Assembly: GCA_963783575.1 (NCBI GenBank)
Contig: CAWAOD010000009.1
Location: 512,001 to 576,000 of the forward strand
Reading direction: 5' to 3'
Source of the DNA: an uncultured Spirochaetota bacterium
Lineage (GTDB): Bacteria > Spirochaetota > Brevinematia > Brevinematales > JAOACQ01
Length of the DNA: 64,000 bases
This document shows positions 2,953-11,434 of the stretch, one piece after another. The notes below the pieces were generated by a model. The model made no database searches and was not told the origin of the DNA. It saw nothing but the letters and a program-made list of their open reading frames with translations. Position 1 is the first letter of the stretch; every line of letters begins with the position of its first letter. A program made the translations under genes and the position numbers.

Positions 2953-4104
2953 ATGTTCGGTATGAAAAAAAAATTGGATCTTGGTATTTTAATCGGAGAA
3001 AACAGGCATAATTATTTATCTTTTGACGAATATACGGAACATTTTCTTCTGCCGTTCTCACCGCGTTTTACAAATATAGATTTTGCCGTAAGTTCCCTAT
3101 CATCAATCGACATAAAAAATATTGTAATTCTGGCAAAGCGGGATAAAGATATCATACTTAATTATGTTGTAAAAGGCTGGCCGTCGATCAATTTTTTTGT
3201 CTTCGATTATATTGATATAAAAGAAAAATTTCTTCAGTTTGTATCGGAATATACTCAGGAACATTCCCTTGAACTAATAGTTATTATGAAAGGAAACTTC
3301 CCGGTCTGGTTTGATATGAAGTTTTTAAAAGAAGTGATGGAGAAGTCTGAAAATATTGCGATTAGAACCAAATATGAGAAGGAATATGTATTTTCCGGTA
3401 TTGTTGTTGAAAAGAATATCTTTATTAAAAAATATGAAAATCTTATTTTTGATGAATCAAATCTGGATGTTGACATTATACAAAAAATCACCGATGAATT
3501 CAAAATGCATACTATTGATGCCAGTGGATATATTATGCCTTTCAGAAGTTTAAAAGAATACTACAATATTCATATCGACATGCTTGATGATTACCTTGTA
3601 TTTGACCGTTTTAATGCTTATGTTCCGATCAGAGGCGATCTTGCAATGAATATAACGTCAAACCTGGGCCGCGGTTCACATATCATTAATTCAATAATGG
3701 GTGAAAATGTTGAGATTTCAGGTAAAATTGAGAATTCAGTCATTTTCTCAAATGTAAAAGTCGGCCGAAATGCTTATATAAAAAATTCTCTTATATTTCC
3801 GGGGAACCATATCGGGAGCAATGTACAGATTATTAATTCAATTATTGACGAATTCTCTGAAGATAATACTCTTCCTAATATTGAGCCGTATTCGGTAATC
3901 GGGAATGATAAACCTTCAGGAATAAATGAAAAATTCCCCGATATTCTTAATTTTGGAGTTACCCTTATCGGTAAAGACGCCAGACTTCCCGCCAGCACAA
4001 AAATAGGGGCAAATTGCTACCTCGACAGTTTTATTCCGGCATCGGTAATCAGGGAAAATAAAAAAATTAATGATGGAGTATCAATATTAAGGGAAAATCC
4101 TTAA
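2953..4104 (+). CDS. Glucose-1-phosphate adenylyltransferase-like protein (GlgC/GlgD-like, degenerate nucleotidyltransferase motif, C-terminal left-handed beta helix)
   Basis: LLPFSPRFTNIDFAVSS resembles the GlgC VPFGGKYRIIDF segment; C-terminal hexapeptide repeats (IENSVIFSNVKVG); canonical GGxGxRL absent. Confidence 0.65.
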   Translation: MFGMKKKLDLGILIGENRHNYLSFDEYTEHFLLPFSPRFTNIDFAVSSLSSIDIKNIVILAKRDKDIILNYVVKGWPSINFFVFDYIDIKEKFLQFVSEYTQEHSLELIVIMKGNFPVWFDMKFLKEVMEKSENIAIRTKYEKEYVFSGIVVEKNIFIKKYENLIFDESNLDVDIIQKITDEFKMHTIDASGYIMPFRSLKEYYNIHIDMLDDYLVFDRFNAYVPIRGDLAMNITSNLGRGSHIINSIMGENVEISGKIENSVIFSNVKVGRNAYIKNSLIFPGNHIGSNVQIINSIIDEFSEDNTLPNIEPYSVIGNDKPSGINEKFPDILNFGVTLIGKDARLPASTKIGANCYLDSFIPASVIRENKKINDGVSILRENP

Positions 4105-4220
4105 TCTATTGAATATATATTTCTAATAAGTTGCCCATCGTCCCCGCCTTTCAAAAAATTATGACAATTCGAAATAAACCATTCTTAAATTAACATTCAA
4201 TATAAAATAGTTGTTGGCAT

Positions 4221-4249
4221 TTGACAATAATTATTTTTTCATTTATAAT
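4221..4249 (+). promoter_or_regulatory. Consensus sigma70 promoter of the speE fusion gene
   Basis: TTGACA (4221-4226), 17-bp spacer, TATAAT (4244-4249). Confidence 0.85.
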
Positions 4250-4276
4250 TGGCATATGCTAAAATAGGAGAATGGA

Positions 4277-6048
4277 ATGGGGCTGATCAAAAAGCAGAAT
4301 GAATTGTGGTTTTTGAAGATCTTTATAATGATGTGACTTATGGTTTTAAGGTTTCAAAAGTATTGGTTCCCGAGGCCAATACCGGCATTCAAAAAATTAT
4401 GATTCTGGATACCGAAAGGCTGGGCCGCGTTCTTATTCTGGATGGTATAGTCCAGCTTACTGAGGAGGACGAGGGAATTTATCATGAATGGATTACTCAC
4501 TGGCCGCTGTTTTCACTGGACAAGACTGGCAAGAACGTGCTGATAATCGGAGGCGGGGACGGCGGTGTCGCCCGTGAAGTTCTGCGGCACAGGTCGGTCA
4601 AAAATTTAACAATGGTTGAAATTGACAGAATGGTTGTGGATAAATGCAGGGAATACTTGCACTCTTTATCGGAAGGCGTCTGGGATGATCCGCGTTTTAA
4701 ACTTCTGATTGGCGACGGCGCTGAAGCTTTACGGTCTCTAAAAGATAAATTTGATGTGATTATTATAGACTCTATCGATCCTATAGGACCTGCCAAAAGT
4801 TTCTTCAGTACCGAATTTTATCAAAGCGTTTATGATTCTCTCAAAGACGGTGGTATAGCGGTTCATCAAACCGGTTCTTTGATTTTACAGCCTTCCGAAT
4901 GTCCTGGAAGCTGGCGTCAGATAGAACGTTCTTTTGATGATATCCTCGTCATGCAATTCAGCAATGTAAGTTATATGGGCGGCCCTTTCAGCCTGACAGC
5001 CGGTTCAAAAGGCAGGAATGTTTTTCAAAAAGCTGTACAAAACTCGAAAAAAGTCTATAAAAAATCAGGCATAAAATGCAGCTGGTATTCTCCAAATATT
5101 CCAGCGATTGTTTACCCTGAGTTTCAGAAACGTATGGAACAGGATAAATACGGTGAAGAAGTTATTATGGATATAGAATTGAGAAATAATAAAATCCCGC
5201 CGGTGGAAAAAGTTACCGAATGGAGCAGACAAACTTGTGAAGCCATTAATATGAGGGCATTCGGTACACCATTAGTATCTAAACAAGAATTCGGTGAAGG
5301 TGATACTCTGGTACAGTACGTTGAGACCAGCGCCATTAATTACCGGCAGTATGGTTCAAACGGATGCGCTTATCTGCCTGTGAATGATGCCGTTAAATAT
5401 TCGCTTGGTTATTTCGGGGCCATTAAAGGGGCTTTTTGGCATATTCCCAGGGGTTCATTTGCAGGACTAAGCGAGATCCGTAAACACAGTCTTATTTATA
5501 TGGCAGAGTTATCACAGAACGGGAATAATCTGAAACACACTGATAAAATATACAGGGCAAAACTCATTAATTGTATGGAAGTGCTAACGGGAAATTTCAA
5601 ACTTTCTGTAGAAGAGGGTTTTTCGCCTGCTTTTGAATTGATTATTGATCTTTATAACTGCGATTATAGAACTATTTCTTCCTCAACAGCAGTAGCCAAA
5701 TGGGCTTCGCTCGATCTATGTAAGGCAGCCGGGCTGAAACCGTTAGGAAAAGCGGACGCCCCTGATTTCGGCCATGCCAAGAAAAAAACCTCCGGGCCTT
5801 CTGTTACCCAGTTTCTGAAACACGGCTCCAATATCAGTCATTATTCAGAAAACTGGCTTATGATCCTAATTAACATTGTTTCTGCCAAACCGTTTTCCAT
5901 CCGCGAAGTCCTTGCTTCGGCCTTTAAGTATTTTAAGGGTGAAAGGGCTGTGTGCTGGCTTTTGCCCCGTGGATGCGGCGGCAAAAATCTTAAGCGGATC
6001 GCCGAAAAGACATTGATTTTTGAGGTAATGAAAAAAGACCTGGAGTAA
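4277..6048 (+). CDS. speE: Spermidine synthase fused to two C-terminal SpeD/AdoMetDC-like domains (ORF track start 4306; likely true start 4277 with one T missing in the T-run near 4310)
   Basis: LDGIVQLTEEDEGIYHE, VLIIGGGDGG, VEID, IIIDSIDPIGPA; C-terminal repeats YGEEVIMD...QYVETSAIN...IPRG and FELIIDLYNC...SVTQFL...LPRG; AGGAG + ATG 4277 would give MGLIKKQNELWFFEDLY. Confidence 0.85.
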
Positions 6049-6083
6049 CCCGGTCAAATTACCCCCTTTTAAGGAGGTTTAAA

Positions 6084-6353
6084 GTGCCTGCAACAAACGC
6101 TTTTATCAGGTTTATAGGTTTCATAAAAGGTTTTCTATACGAAATAGTAGGCTTTGATACAGCCAATTTTGCACTGACAACCAGAAGAAAAATGGAACAT
6201 ATGCTCATGCTTGTAACCATAGGCGATTTGCTCGGCATACCGATCATGCCGTCATATTATAGTATTCGCTTTCTGCCTTATTTTGTTTCTCAAATATCCG
6301 CCTGGAAAAAAAGCATGTTGCGTGAAAGGGATTTTATTGACTCTTTATTTTGA
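6084..6353 (+). CDS. Small hypothetical protein resembling the short proteins found beside cstA/arsA genes
   Basis: Strong RBS AAGGAGG; motif MLMLVTIGDLLGIPIMPSYYSIRFLPY...WKKSMLRERD. Confidence 0.5.
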   Translation: MPATNAFIRFIGFIKGFLYEIVGFDTANFALTTRRKMEHMLMLVTIGDLLGIPIMPSYYSIRFLPYFVSQISAWKKSMLRERDFIDSLF

Positions 6354-6416
6354 TATTCACTTTGATAAAAACAATGTTTTTTTATAGCTAAGCATATACA
6401 GATATTTGGAGGATAT

Positions 6417-6881
6417 ATGCCGCGTCCCATGAAATGCAGAAAAATCGACTTCAGCCCGACAACCCTTTTTTTTAAGCCCGCTGGCATTCCTTTAAGAGAA
6501 TTGGAAATAATCACCTTAACTCTGGATGAACTTGAAGCAGTTCGTCTTGCTGATTTCCAATGTTTATATCAGGAGGAAGCTGCTCAAAAAATGAATATCT
6601 CAAGACAAACATTTGGAAATATTATATCATCAGCAAGAAGTAAAATTGCGGATGCGCTTATTAATGGGAAAGCCATAAAAATTGAAGGAGGTTTTGTTGA
6701 TATAGTTGAAAGAAAATTTATTTGTTATGACTGCAAACATGAATGGACTTTACCCTTTGGAACAGGTCATCCAGCCAAATGTCCCGAGTGTCAAGGCGTT
6801 AATGTACACCGTAATCCTGAAGATCGTGGGCAATCTCATCATGGCAGAGGTTGCAGACATCAAAATAATGGAAATCAATAA
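6417..6881 (+). CDS. DUF134 putative DNA-binding protein with C-terminal Zn ribbon
   Basis: MPRPMKCRKI, FKPAG, DELEAVRLADF, QEEAAQKMNISRQTFG; CYDC...CPEC. Confidence 0.88.
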   Translation: MPRPMKCRKIDFSPTTLFFKPAGIPLRELEIITLTLDELEAVRLADFQCLYQEEAAQKMNISRQTFGNIISSARSKIADALINGKAIKIEGGFVDIVERKFICYDCKHEWTLPFGTGHPAKCPECQGVNVHRNPEDRGQSHHGRGCRHQNNGNQ

Positions 6882-6894
6882 ATAGAAGAAATTT

Positions 6895-7251
6895 ATGGAA
6901 ATCATAGGCTTTAGTATTCTTGGAGCTATTAACGGCACTTTGAGCGGCTTTTTAGGAATAGGCGGTGCAATGATTATTATACCTGTTTTAGTTTATATTT
7001 TTGGTTTCGATCAGAAAACGGCACAGTGTACAACTCTTTTACTGATGCTTCCGCCCATTGGCCTTTTTGCGGCGCTTGAATATCATAAAGCAGGTTTTAC
7101 CAATATTAAAGCAGGAATTTTTATTGCTATATTTTTCATAATTGGAAGTTGGATTTCCAGTAAATTTGCGGTCAAATTGAATCCCGATATTATCAGAAAA
7201 ATATTTGCCTGTTCTTTAATGCTAATATCGATCAGAATGTTTTTTAAATAA
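6895..7251 (+). CDS. TauE/SafE sulfite exporter family membrane protein (half-size)
   Basis: SGFLGIGGAMIIIPVL, QKTAQCTTL, hydrophobic. Confidence 0.8.
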   Translation: MEIIGFSILGAINGTLSGFLGIGGAMIIIPVLVYIFGFDQKTAQCTTLLLMLPPIGLFAALEYHKAGFTNIKAGIFIAIFFIIGSWISSKFAVKLNPDIIRKIFACSLMLISIRMFFK

Positions 7252-7265
7252 ATATTTTTGGAGGA

Positions 7266-7640
7266 ATGTATATGATTTTAGCTATCCCAACGGAAAACAT
7301 GAGCGGAGATCTTTCTGTTGTTTATGGACACTTTGGTAGCGCACCCTTTTATGCTTTTTACAATTCATCTAATGAAAAATTAGATTTTGTTGACAACGGC
7401 AATAAAGAGCATGAGCATGGCCAGTGCCAGCCGGTAGATGAATTGATGGAAAAGAAGGTTGAAGCAGTTATTTGCAATGGAATGGGACTTCGTGCTATCA
7501 ATAATCTTAATTCACTTAGCATCAAAGTTTATTTTGCCGACAATGCCCTTAATGTTGGTGAAATTGTAACGATGTTTAAAAATGGTGAATTAAAAGAGCT
7601 TCTTTCCGCTAATGCTTGCCAGCACCATAATTGCCATTGA
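7266..7640 (+). CDS. NifB/NifX family (FeMo-cofactor biosynthesis-like) protein
   Basis: HFGSAPFY, HEHGQC, VICNGMGLRA, C-terminal CQHHNCH. Confidence 0.85.
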   Translation: MYMILAIPTENMSGDLSVVYGHFGSAPFYAFYNSSNEKLDFVDNGNKEHEHGQCQPVDELMEKKVEAVICNGMGLRAINNLNSLSIKVYFADNALNVGEIVTMFKNGELKELLSANACQHHNCH

Positions 7641-7729
7641 TTAGTCTATTCAACCAATTTCCCCATAGTCAGCACAAGGATAGCATTACCCATGTTTCTT
7701 CCCTGTGCTGATATTTTAGAGGTAAATTT

Positions 7730-8106
7730 ATGGTAAATATTACAAAAATCCGGGCGCGTTATGAAGAAAACGACCAAATGGGATTTATCCATCATTCAAA
7801 ACACATAGTCTGGATGGAACTTGCAAGAATGAATTTATTTCGTGAATGTGGCGTAAGTTGTCGTGAGCTTGAAACAAACGGTATTCTTTTACCTGTTACT
7901 CAAGTTATTACAAAATATGCTTCTCCGGCTTACTTTGATAATGAAGTTTATATTCATGCGGCTTTTACAAAAATCTCTCATGCTAAATTCGTGTAGATTA
8001 TTTAATTTTCAGGAATGAAAAAGAACGGCTTTGTTATGGTTATACCGAACATTGTTTTTTAACTAAAGAAACAAAAAAAACGATATGTTCCAGAGCAGGT
8101 TTATAA
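7730..8106 (+). CDS. Acyl-CoA thioesterase (YbgC/4HBT family), frameshifted near 7990
   Basis: RARYEENDQMGFIHHS, WMELAR, YASPAYFD; continues in another frame as VDYLIFRNEKERLCYGYTEHCF. Confidence 0.75.
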
Positions 8107-8198
8107 TAAGCTTAAATTATCAAAAACGGCAGCATATTGGAAAACCAGCAAAGTGGTCTGAAAAAGTTCCTAAACTAAAATATTTAATGGAGAACATT

Positions 8199-8967
8199 AT
8201 GCCCTATTTGCAATTTTATAATAAAAAAATATTTTATAACATTACAGGAAAAGGTTCTCCGTTGCTTTTGCTTCATAATGGGTTTTACAGCACCGCAACT
8301 TGGGATGGTATAAGAGAACAGTTCGCAAAGCACTTTATGGTGATTGATTATGACCGTTATGGATATGGCAAGTCAAGGTTTTCCGGCGAAACTACCGATA
8401 CTGGTACACATGCTGACATTGTTGAAGCAGGAGTACTAGAATTATCAGAGGTTATCAAGGCTTTAAATTTGGATACTGTGAAAATAGTGGGACATTGTAT
8501 TGGTGGGGCCATCTCTTTTTTATATGCAGTTCGAAATCCTGGTAAGGTCAAAAAATTAGTACCCGTATCTGTTGGGTATTATGGTGATGAAACGTCCATA
8601 TTAAAAACCGGACTTACCTTTAGATCATTTGATGATCTCAATCCAATCGTAAAATCCCTTGTTATATCAGGCTCATGGTGACAAAAATTATGCAGAGGAA
8701 TTTTTTAATAAAATACGCCATTCAAAGAATAGTTATATCATGTCGGAAACATATGATATTCGAGAAGAAATAAAACAAATTGATTGTCCTGTTTTCATTG
8801 TTAACGGGGATAGGGATTATTATTTTAATGTCTTTCAACCTCTTGAAATTTATGAAATGTTAAAAAGAAAGGCAAAATTGTGGATTGCGCCTGGAGTTGG
8901 GCATGATGTGCATTTGGAATCCCCCAATTATTTTGTTTCCTATCTTCTTGATTTTCTAAAGGATTAG
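8199..8967 (+). CDS. Alpha/beta hydrolase, frameshifted at the CCC near 8657 (ORFs 8085..8681 + 8659..8967)
   Basis: LLLLHNG, DYDRYGYGKS, GHCIGG (Cys at the nucleophile position), NGDRD, GVGHDVH; GGAG RBS before ATG 8199. Confidence 0.8.
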
Positions 8968-9036
8968 ATATAAAAACATATGATCCATTTACTGTTTTTC
9001 ATAAAATATTCGGAATATTAATTCTAGGAGAAAGTT

Positions 9037-9681
9037 ATGACTGACTGGAACGATTTATTTAAAAATCAAGACTTGGTTATTAATGAGCCTAATGTAAAAC
9101 TGGTAGAATACTTTGAAACAATAAAAAAAATAGATTTCCCACAAAATATTATTGATCTTGGTTGTGGAACTGGCAGACACTCTGTTTGTTTCGCCGAAAA
9201 AGGTTATAAAGTCCATGCTGTTGATTCATCTGTAAATGCGCTTGAAATTTTAAAACAAAACATTAAACCTAATTATGATATTCAGATTTCACAATTAGAT
9301 TTACAAGACCTTTCCACCATTCAAGAAAAGTTTGATTTTGCTGTATGTATAAATGTTTTAAGTCACGGCAAATATAATGAAATTGAAAAAATGTTTTATG
9401 AAATCGAGCGAATAATTAAAAATAATGGAATACTTTTTTTGATAATAACTCCTGTTGAATTTTATAAATATGTAGCTGGACCAGATACTATAGAGGTTGA
9501 AAAAAACTCTTTTTTACATATTAATGCTCCAGACGGCGATATAATTCACCATTTTTTTACTGAAGAAGAAGTCAGACATTTATTAAGAAATTATCAGGAT
9601 GTATCAGTTAAAAATATTATGGAATACAGCCCTTGGCAAAAAAAGGAAGTTGAACATTTTTTGGTAATCGCAAAAAAATAA
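9037..9681 (+). CDS. Class I SAM-dependent methyltransferase
   Basis: IIDLGCGTGRH, AVDSS, FDFAVC, RIIKNNG. Confidence 0.9.
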   Translation: MTDWNDLFKNQDLVINEPNVKLVEYFETIKKIDFPQNIIDLGCGTGRHSVCFAEKGYKVHAVDSSVNALEILKQNIKPNYDIQISQLDLQDLSTIQEKFDFAVCINVLSHGKYNEIEKMFYEIERIIKNNGILFLIITPVEFYKYVAGPDTIEVEKNSFLHINAPDGDIIHHFFTEEEVRHLLRNYQDVSVKNIMEYSPWQKKEVEHFLVIAKK

Positions 9682-9878
9682 ACGAAATTAAACGGGTGCT
9701 AAAAAAAGATGGAATGCTTTTTATAGTTAATGGATACCCTAAAGTGGGGACAAAATGGTATGATATTGTGAAATTTAAGAATGACAATGAATACAGGTCT
9801 TTTTTAACAAAATGCGGTTTCAGGGAAATTATCATAGATATTGAAAAAAATACAATAATGATAAGAGCATTTAAGTGA
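9681..9878 (+). pseudogene. C-terminal remnant of another methyltransferase
   Basis: Reads NEIKRVLKKDGMLFIVN...LTKCGFREI (motif III and C-terminus) with no N-terminal SAM-binding motif. Confidence 0.5.
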
Positions 9879-10860: not shown

Positions 10861-11434
10861 ATGGCTAATAACTTTAATCCAAAGAATATGGAAAGTCTGG
10901 ATGTACCTGAAAGAAAAAAATCCTGCCGGCAGAAGAATTATTGAGGAAAATTGGATTGAAAGAAGGCGATGTATTTCTTGATATCGGAGCAGGCAGCGGT
11001 TATTTTACTTTCCCTGCCGCCGGGATTTTGGGAAATCAGGGCAGGATAATATCGATAGATTCGTCTTCAGTTATGATAGAAGAATTAAAGCGGAAAGCTA
11101 TTGCAAAAGGTTATCATAATATTGATATTCGATTGTCTCAAGAATATGAATTAAATTTGAAAAATGAAAAAGCTGATATCGCTTTTATGAGCCTTGTTCT
11201 ACATGATAGATAGAAGACAAAAATAGATTTATTACAGGAGTAAAGTCTTCACTAAATCTAAATGGGAGAATCATAATCATAGAGTGGCTGCGAAAAACTA
11301 TGGAAAAAGGCCCGCCGATACTTGACAGGGTATCTCTGGAAGAAGTTGAAGAACTTTTGAAATCCACAGGTTTTACAATTTTACAGAGTAAAATTTACAA
11401 TGACTATTTTTACTATATTATTGGTAAGATTTGA
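10861..11434 (+). CDS. Class I SAM-dependent methyltransferase with two frameshifts (near 10914-10920 and near 11207)
   Basis: AAGGAG + ATG 10861 gives MANNFNPKNMESLDVPERKK; then FLDIGAGSGYF and SLVLH; then LNLNGRIIIIEW...GPP to TGA 11434. Confidence 0.75.

Follow-up and report, generated by a model that had tools for sequence, protein, structure and literature searches.

Spermidine Synthases Fused to a Duplicated SpeDC-Type Module with a Predicted Single Split Pyruvoyl Site

In a 64,000-nucleotide stretch of DNA from an uncultured Spirochaetota bacterium (the window; contig CAWAOD010000009.1, positions 512,001 to 576,000), a gene at 4306–6048 of the forward strand belongs to a protein family in which an aminopropyltransferase (SpeE) domain is followed by two related units predicted to have the fold of S-adenosylmethionine decarboxylase (AdoMetDC). 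By sequence, both units are of the type of SpeDC, described as a pyruvoyl-dependent L-ornithine decarboxylase (ODC) derived from class 1b AdoMetDC (Li et al. 2023, PMC10407285). We consider it probable that intact members are one-chain polyamine synthases, in which a split-site SpeDC-type module converts ornithine to putrescine for the fused SpeE and decarboxylated S-adenosylmethionine (dcSAM) comes from a separate AdoMetDC. Unit 1 would cleave itself at Thr-Ser to form a pyruvoyl group, and a His from unit 2 would complete the site across the internal interface. Ornithine would be decarboxylated to putrescine at this single pyruvoyl site, and the SpeE domain would then transfer an aminopropyl group from dcSAM, made by a separate gene, onto putrescine to give spermidine, possibly spermine.

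Results

A Conserved Family with Two Reciprocally Degenerate Units

A survey of the architecture across genomes, as proposed in the initial annotation made from the window's letters, yielded a conserved family of ∼590 amino acids (aa). The C-terminal region as query retrieved 155 proteins, and those among the 120 listed were mostly 581–600 aa long; the named sources were Aminicenantes, Acidobacteria, and one Patescibacteria record. Among 80 metagenome loci, motifs of SpeE and of both units stood in one frame in 73, another was full length but missed by the unit 1 expression, and six were cut by contig ends. Of 41 genomes surrounding that of the window, 8 carried the fusion, all of them from the window's family; in the phylum of genome G042, 4 of 201 genomes had it at full length. 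A contig scan of genomes with a single protein as the query returned four loci, and the relative G011 had three matches to the fusion, of which two scored equally and the third was interrupted by a frameshift. The family is real, conserved, and apparently undescribed: no fusion of SpeE with SpeDC or with a double unit was found in a literature search in which subscription journals were mostly not covered, and none is described in the available parts of PMC10407285, PMC12803844, PMC11107197, PMC8503589, PMC5201418, and PMC9992855. SpeDC itself, SpeD–SpeDC tandems (including those with a degraded second half), and fusions with an N-terminal AdoMetDC and an aminopropyltransferase are already published.

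The domain order originally read from the window was borne out. The SpeE domain (4312–5118, residues 3–271) scored above the PRK00811 cutoff, and the two units that follow it matched each other in hhalign with a probability of 96.7 (E 3.5e-10; 28% identity over 121 columns), a match that includes a C-terminal helix-strand extension. Unit 1 (5149–5520) has Gln337, Glu340-Thr341-Ser342, Arg347 at the position of the catalytic His, and Cys354. Its E-T-S lies at 5323–5331, with the predicted pyruvoyl Ser at 5329–5331, and it carries the extension after its PRG (5446–5454). Unit 2 (5620–6045) is of the same SpeDC type and is predicted not to self-cleave: it has a PDFGHAKKKT loop, Ser499, Gln502, Gly507 at the pyruvoyl-Ser position, His512 (5839–5841), Tyr513, and Asn516, no Cys, and PRG at 5965–5973. 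The motifs first noted, E-T-S in unit 1 and its absence from unit 2, together with FWHIPRG and CWLLPRG, are all as reported.

We compared these positions with the other 109 full-length members (all residue counts out of 109 leave out the window copy), setting the register by a gapless comparison with the validated Desulfotignum ODC domain (Fig. S5 of PMC10407285). In unit 1, the E, T, and S, the Arg at the His position, and the Cys were invariant in 109/109; in unit 2, the Gly at the Ser position, the His, and the Asn were equally invariant, with no Ser at that position and no Cys in any member. All 135 proteins selected by a regular expression had the same reciprocal pattern. Li et al. reported Ser63, His68, and Cys83 to be essential for processing (PMC10407285). 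Because Ser and Cys occur only in unit 1 and His only in unit 2, we predict one active site shared across the units, not two. The second half, for which a structural or a complementary role had been proposed, would be complementary, as the His lost from unit 1 is retained in unit 2.

Structure prediction supports this arrangement. We modeled P0009, an intact paralog, rather than the window copy. AlphaFold2 folded both of its units into one compact domain (pLDDT 93.5, pTM 0.93) that shows the two-sheet sandwich of two half-enzymes known from AdoMetDC. The best fold match of the two-unit model was the human class 2 proenzyme (1msv; Z 17.4, rmsd 3.8, 240 aligned, model 1–306), and unit 2 of the model matched the Thermotoga maritima class 1b AdoMetDC (1vr7; Z 13.3, rmsd 3.1, 119 aligned). 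Other fold matches were the trypanosome prozyme (Z 16.7) and the N-terminal domain of spermine synthase (Z 7.4), and Foldseek agreed with the assignment. In the T. maritima structure, the His presumably reaches the Ser of the partner across the dimer interface; which protomer contributes His68, Ser55, and Glu72 is likewise our assumption. In the class 2 enzyme of Trypanosoma brucei, the pyruvoyl group (residue 86) and Cys100 are in the first half, and Tyr243 and Ser249 are in the second (PMC5201418). Reciprocal residues and predicted fold thus agree with the asymmetric single-chain pseudo-dimer with one processed half that had been suggested for the window protein.

The assignment of the units to the AdoMetDC fold is based on structure prediction and profiles. 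Those two lines uphold the AdoMetDC-like character first given to the units, whereas direct sequence comparison does not: PF02675 touched unit 2 only and stayed below its cutoff (18.2 vs. 25 bits), unit 1 of the window protein had no Pfam match, and the window protein had no match to PF01536; the two-unit model was 8% identical to 1msv. A PDB sequence search with the whole family found SpeE only, one with unit 2 gave chance ABC-transporter matches, and a PHROGs search with the units gave nothing significant. A search for stand-alone unit 1 proteins returned four fragments only.

Both Units Resemble SpeDC in Sequence

We scored both units with profile hidden Markov models (HMMs) of the competing enzyme types. 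The SpeDC HMM was built from 60 nonredundant viral-contig genes chosen by their SpeDC motif, and the ESH..HTWPE HMMs were built from 65 genes with and 9 without the Pro of F-x-P-x-G, 6 of these inputs coming from bacterial loci. The SpeDC HMM was preferred by every unit 1 (119/119; median 36.9 vs. 4.4 bits) and every unit 2 (119/119; 30.7 vs. 2.5 bits), and this remained so for 119/119 of each unit when the selecting motif was cut away and only the N-terminal part was scored. An unbiased phmmer search against 1.84 billion representatives gave 71 matches, of which 60 were from outside the family after three short or spurious rows were dropped; Q-x-x-E-[TS]-S was present in 51 of these 60.

Two diagnostic residues of SpeDC, Gln and Thr, are kept: unit 1 reads Q-x-x-E-T-S, with Thr in 109/109, and unit 2 has the Gln in 108/109. 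The class 1b AdoMetDC signature (E-S-H..H-T-W-P-E, the conserved Pro, and Ser, His, and Cys in one domain) is missing from both units. The position of T. maritima Glu72, which we take to bind the ribose, is Asn in 109/109. Judged by sequence, the module is probably not an AdoMetDC.

Genome Context Points to a Putrescine-Forming Module

We then considered 15 genomes that carry the fusion: 8 of the window's family, 4 of Aminicenantes/Acidobacteriota, and 3 further ones (G101, G137, and G223). A separate AdoMetDC or a candidate for one was found in 14 of them, in three different types. In the window's family, all seven fusion-bearing relatives encode a class 1a SpeD (above the TIGR03331 cutoff in the one tested) and no stand-alone SpeE, and the four members without the fusion have neither. 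Class 1a SpeD was rejected as the origin of the module, being a separate gene in these relatives. The four Aminicenantes/Acidobacteriota carriers each have a class 1b SpeD with the Pro.

G101, G137, and G223 have no PF02675 gene and could have served as a counter-example. Each of them holds, however, a 407-aa class 2-like candidate that was found in 0 of the 12 other carriers, and so in exactly three of the four carriers without a class 1 SpeD. This protein (L368:661–1884, forward; L369:1375–2598, reverse; L370:1354–2577, reverse) reads IEESHAS..EVNTCG in its N-terminal half and FDPPGYT..IALHVTP in its C-terminal half. It matched PF01536 weakly (E about 1e-4) and no PDB sequence; its ten best matches in the Atlas all belonged to the PF01536 family or clan (scores up to 0.83), which we treat as a lead only. 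It is a candidate for a bacterial class 2-like AdoMetDC, very divergent from the solved ones.

Other routes to putrescine were sought in the eight family carriers, and none of them had a PF02784 frame of SpeA length, AguA, an arginase-family gene, PvlArgDC, or an AAT-fold decarboxylase above cutoff. All four family members without the fusion have frames of SpeA length (judged by length only) and AguA. Li et al. found ODCs by a gene pattern in which one SpeE accompanies two SpeD homologs and an agmatine route is absent (PMC10407285). The initial annotation had offered the module as an AdoMetDC serving the fused SpeE, which is opposed by the SpeDC-like sequence of both units and by the fact that 14 of 15 carriers encode an AdoMetDC, or a candidate for one, as a separate gene. 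Of its proposals, the side option of a multistep enzyme leading from putrescine to spermidine is the better.

We also observed stand-alone SpeD homologs of ∼128 aa with Q-L-I-x-T-S-A-I in genomes of the same order (L038, L039:2948–3334, L040, and L041:2993–3379); a SET-domain-like gene adjoins them in L038 and L039.

The SpeE Domain

The SpeE domain scored 278.6 bits with PRK00811 (cutoff 260), 168.7 with PF01564 (22.9), and 243.9 with TIGR00417, just below 249.55. Its best solved relative, by sequence and by fold, is Escherichia coli SpeE. Among the dcSAM-binding GGGD(G/C)G, the EID, and the catalytic DS(T)DP motifs, GGGD-G and both Asp residues are invariant in 109/109. In the window, GGGDGG lies at 4549–4566 and DSIDP at 4768–4782, the latter with Ile for Thr157 where 108/109 members have DSTDP. 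The hhhhGGGD(G/C)G of the domain fits the spermine synthase pattern, a motif that, according to PMC11107197, does not separate spermidine synthases. To judge from this motif, the fused SpeE may make spermine rather than spermidine.

The window's genome also has a carboxy(nor)spermidine decarboxylase with a dehydrogenase-like partner (G000:C9:198832–201182; L019:776–3118). In G001, whose decarboxylase is above the TIGR01047 cutoff, the pair lies directly upstream of the fusion. These genes would constitute a second spermidine route, which would also need putrescine; the fused SpeE may then make a longer polyamine.

Single-Unit Fusions Suggest How the Module Arose

Fusions of SpeE with a single SpeDC unit, 418–469 aa long, also exist: one search gave eight full ones and a later search two more (P0131, P0133, P0137, P0138, P0145, P0146, P0160, P0168, P0206, and P0216), all with Ser, His, and Cys in one domain. 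P0131 combines within the same domain motifs that are typical of unit 1 (MKPFGEP, QLIETSAI, and ANIFTC) and of unit 2 (APDFGHGKNKTAGPSV and HYS-x-HWL), and it has the PRGSF extension.

Trees were unrooted and based on ∼125 alignment columns. P0131 grouped with both units in a quick tree of 129 rows (support 92) and in a careful tree of 34 rows (98/94). In the careful tree, the branch of P0131 was short (0.27) and the stems of units 1 and 2 were long (1.05 and 0.83), and this difference fits a duplication followed by reciprocal loss. The units fell on the SpeDC side of a branch with 100/100 support and were nested within SpeDC in the quick tree. P0145 grouped with stand-alone SpeDC and may represent a separate fusion event.

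A P0131-like single-unit fusion is, by its motifs and placement, the likely state before the duplication. We infer a history in which SpeDC was fused to SpeE and acquired a C-terminal extension, as in P0131, before an internal duplication and the loss of one of two symmetric sites. On balance, we lean toward the view that bacteria keep, in the ODC branch (P0131, P0206, and P0216), the whole route presumed for eukaryotic AdoMetDC; here it would end in a single-chain enzyme that leads from ornithine to polyamine and has one asymmetric pyruvoyl site.

Alternative Substrates and Functions

Several observations weigh against an ODC. When only the C-terminal part was scored, the SpeDC HMM was preferred in 48/119 of unit 1 (107/119 of unit 2). 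Where SpeDC has Phe after the His, unit 2 has Tyr in 103/109 and Phe in 6/109, and the Tyr that precedes the last Asp-x-Phe-Ser-Cys motif, present in 55 of 60 SpeDC-motif proteins and in the single-unit P0131 and P0145, is missing from both units; the positions of the four SpeDC diagnostics were inferred via Fig. S5 of PMC10407285. The careful tree placed the fusion lineage beside, not inside, canonical SpeDC, and in approximately unbiased (AU) tests a placement of either unit on the AdoMetDC side was not rejected (p 0.11 for unit 1, 0.20 for unit 2). The clades also admit exceptions, as one arginine decarboxylase (ADC) lies inside the SpeDC clade (PMC10407285) and one bona fide AdoMetDC inside a phage ODC clade (PMC9992855). 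As for genome context, the 15 carriers form about three kin groups and are not independent, arginase-family and AguA genes were sought in the carriers other than G101, G137, and G223, and both an AAT-fold decarboxylase and an arginase-family gene are present in two of the four Aminicenantes-group genomes (G041 and G043). Part of this evidence would suit the same split site acting on a different basic amino acid, with arginine, lysine, or 2,4-diaminobutyrate leading to aminopropylagmatine, aminopropylcadaverine, or norspermidine. The ADC in the SpeDC clade and the sister position of the fusion lineage in one tree agree with this, as do the alternation of the fusion with SpeA-length genes in the family and several invariant features in which the units differ from SpeDC (in both, Asn instead of Asp ahead of the last motif; the HAKKKT loop; Asn-Trp; and the lost Tyr). 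We nevertheless hold it to be unlikely: neither agmatinase nor AguA, which would use agmatine, was found in the eight family carriers, lysine was used by none of the SpeD homologs tested in PMC10407285, and the Gln and Thr diagnostics are retained.

The module could instead act as an AdoMetDC that supplies dcSAM to the fused SpeE, as a bacterial counterpart to the class 2 enzyme of eukaryotes. The best fold match of the module is indeed a class 2 AdoMetDC, the AU tests and the AdoMetDC in the phage ODC clade are compatible with this, fusions of AdoMetDC with aminopropyltransferases are known (PMC11107197 and PMC12803844), and no separate AdoMetDC was found in the window's own genome, which is 89.85% complete. 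For this last absence we infer an assembly gap, because rpoD, the neighbor of speD in three relatives, is also missing above cutoff from that genome. The 119/119 preference of both units for SpeDC, the Asn at the Glu72 position, and the separate AdoMetDC or candidate in 14/15 carriers, which within the window's family occurs only together with the fusion, make an AdoMetDC improbable, and family carriers would then be left with no putrescine source that we could find. Least likely of all is a catalytically dead scaffold or regulator comparable to the AdoMetDC-derived domain of human spermine synthase or to the trypanosome prozyme. Both of these appear among the fold matches, and each unit taken alone lacks residues needed for processing, but the losses are exactly complementary, and the retained Ser, Cys, and His, needless in a scaffold, are invariant in 109/109. 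An ODC with its site split between two units therefore remains the reading that we prefer.

The Window Copy Carries Two Lesions

The window copy itself departs from its family. The initial annotation took 4277–6048 as one gene and missed that the copy is frameshifted and carries a deletion. The main open frame runs from a GTG at 4306 to 6048 (580 aa, with family members at 581–600 aa), and the likely true start is the ATG at 4277, preceded by a ribosome-binding site (AGGAG, 4266–4270). The frame of this ATG reads MGLIKKQNELWF, matching the family N-terminus, and ends after 19 aa, going out of frame at a run of five T (4310–4314) and reaching a stop at 4334–4336. Programmed frameshifting at 4310–4314 is improbable, given that the gene is uninterrupted in all 109 other full-length members. 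In unit 1, an in-frame deletion of 18 nt at 5364–5369 has removed the strand with the invariant N-x-F-T ahead of the catalytic Cys; the window unit is short by six residues, including the N, F, and T of an N-x-F-T-C motif, all three invariant in 109/109 others. The deletion site is marked by ATGCGC microhomology, and in the G011 copies two such hexamers stand 18 nt apart. As assembled, the window copy is, to judge from these lesions, probably nonfunctional.

Two accounts of the lesions were considered. Both could be assembly errors, leaving a gene that is intact in the cell: the frameshift is a single base in a T run, several neighboring genes have one-base breaks, and beyond the lesions the frame is open, with substitutions at only 8 highly conserved columns, about as many as in the most divergent intact members. 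We regard this as possible but somewhat doubtful, since the loss of 18 nt at a 6-nt direct repeat is the pattern of a slippage deletion, frameshifts are rare elsewhere in the genome (1 of 32 genes tested when three matches of one repeated transposase-like gene are set aside, 4 of 35 with them), and an intact paralog renders the window copy dispensable. This paralog is P0009 (G000:C3:222052–223836, reverse strand; L002:454–2238), which has 594 aa and is 68% identical to the window gene. A recently decayed duplicate within a mobile block is slightly more likely. Two public DNA-run contigs were identical to the window at 4430–4580 and 5136–5231, stretches that cover neither lesion.

Promoter and Neighboring Genes

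A sigma70-type promoter (TTGACA-17-TATAAT) precedes the gene at 4221–4249 on the forward strand. It matches the consensus at 12/12 positions, and the perfect promoter first noted is thus present. The window's genome has 116 perfect promoters of this type. A promoter specific to the fusion gene was rejected, as in G011 the homologous promoter heads a block of Mrp-ATPase, fusion, small ORF, DUF134, and NifX-type genes and so drives the Mrp-type gene first. A palindrome, GCATATGC (4252–4259), follows just past the -10 box; a similar one occurs in G011, and it could be an operator.

The fusion lies in a block (4182–9878, forward strand) that is homologous to G011 blocks at 68–77% DNA identity in pieces and includes several broken genes. 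Beyond the palindrome, 6084–7640 holds a cory-CC-star-like small ORF, DUF134, a short TauE, and NifB/NifX-like genes. Farther downstream, a thioesterase-like gene (7730–8158, frameshift near 7987) and an alpha/beta-hydrolase-like gene (split, 8085–8967) are broken by frameshifts or stops, as is a methyltransferase-like gene at 10861–11400.

Upstream, mtnA (1883–2932, above the TIGR00512 cutoff) is separated from the fusion by a GlgD/GlgC-like protein (2953–4104) of which only the C-terminal part matches, far below cutoff. The position of mtnA two genes away is therefore as first described, but not the functional link drawn from it: searches of 14 other loci and of 80 metagenome loci turned up no mtnA homolog near the fusion, and the proximity is incidental.

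Discussion

If our reading is true, the family is an enzyme type that the papers searched do not describe, and it offers an independent and dissectable replay of the transition from a symmetric homodimer to a pseudo-dimer with one site. The unduplicated form is still available for comparison here, whereas eukaryotic AdoMetDC went through this transition too long ago for sequences to trace it. A hidden source of putrescine would also be predicted in lineages without an annotated ODC or ADC. For annotation, proteins of the family are now labeled plain spermidine synthase, and the faint Pfam match would mislabel their tail as AdoMetDC.

The fusion falls outside both class 1b and class 2 AdoMetDC, and by sequence it agrees with SpeDC in part only. 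With SpeDC it shares the sequence type of both units (C..I.MK.FG, the FG-loop, and Q-x-I-E-T-S) and the presence of another, separate AdoMetDC in genomes that lack a canonical ODC or ADC. SpeDC, however, stands alone or makes up the latter half of a SpeD fusion, and a single unit holds Ser, His, and Cys, whereas here the unit is duplicated behind SpeE, the triad is split between the copies, and the Tyr diagnostic is lost. The SpeD1–SpeD2 fusions described for Desulfotignum, Ca. Omnitrophica, and Victivallis (PMC10407285) also have two SpeD-fold units per chain, and in Victivallis only one of them cleaves, as we predict for the fusion. Those chains pair an intact AdoMetDC with an active or degraded SpeDC upstream of a separate speE; in the family described here, two incomplete SpeDC-type units descend from one ancestor and share their chain with SpeE.

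Bacterial AdoMetDC–aminopropyltransferase fusions and animal spermine synthase, as described in PMC11107197 and PMC12803844, likewise combine a SpeD fold and an aminopropyltransferase in one chain. In those proteins, one class 1b AdoMetDC at the N-terminus provides the aminopropyl donor, whereas the SpeE-fused module is C-terminal and doubled and would supply the amine acceptor. The eukaryotic class 2 AdoMetDC (human 1msv and T. brucei) has in common with the fusion the two-sheet sandwich, predicted in our case, and an N-terminal half that holds the pyruvoyl Ser and the Cys, and the C-terminal extension on both fusion units resembles the presumed intermediate in the Fig. 7 legend of PMC5201418. 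In contrast to that enzyme, the fusion has SpeDC-type halves, no PF01536 match, 8% identity, and a SpeE domain joined to it, and the likeness is best read as parallel origin. The architecture is thus likely to be like that of class 2 AdoMetDC and the chemistry like that of SpeDC.

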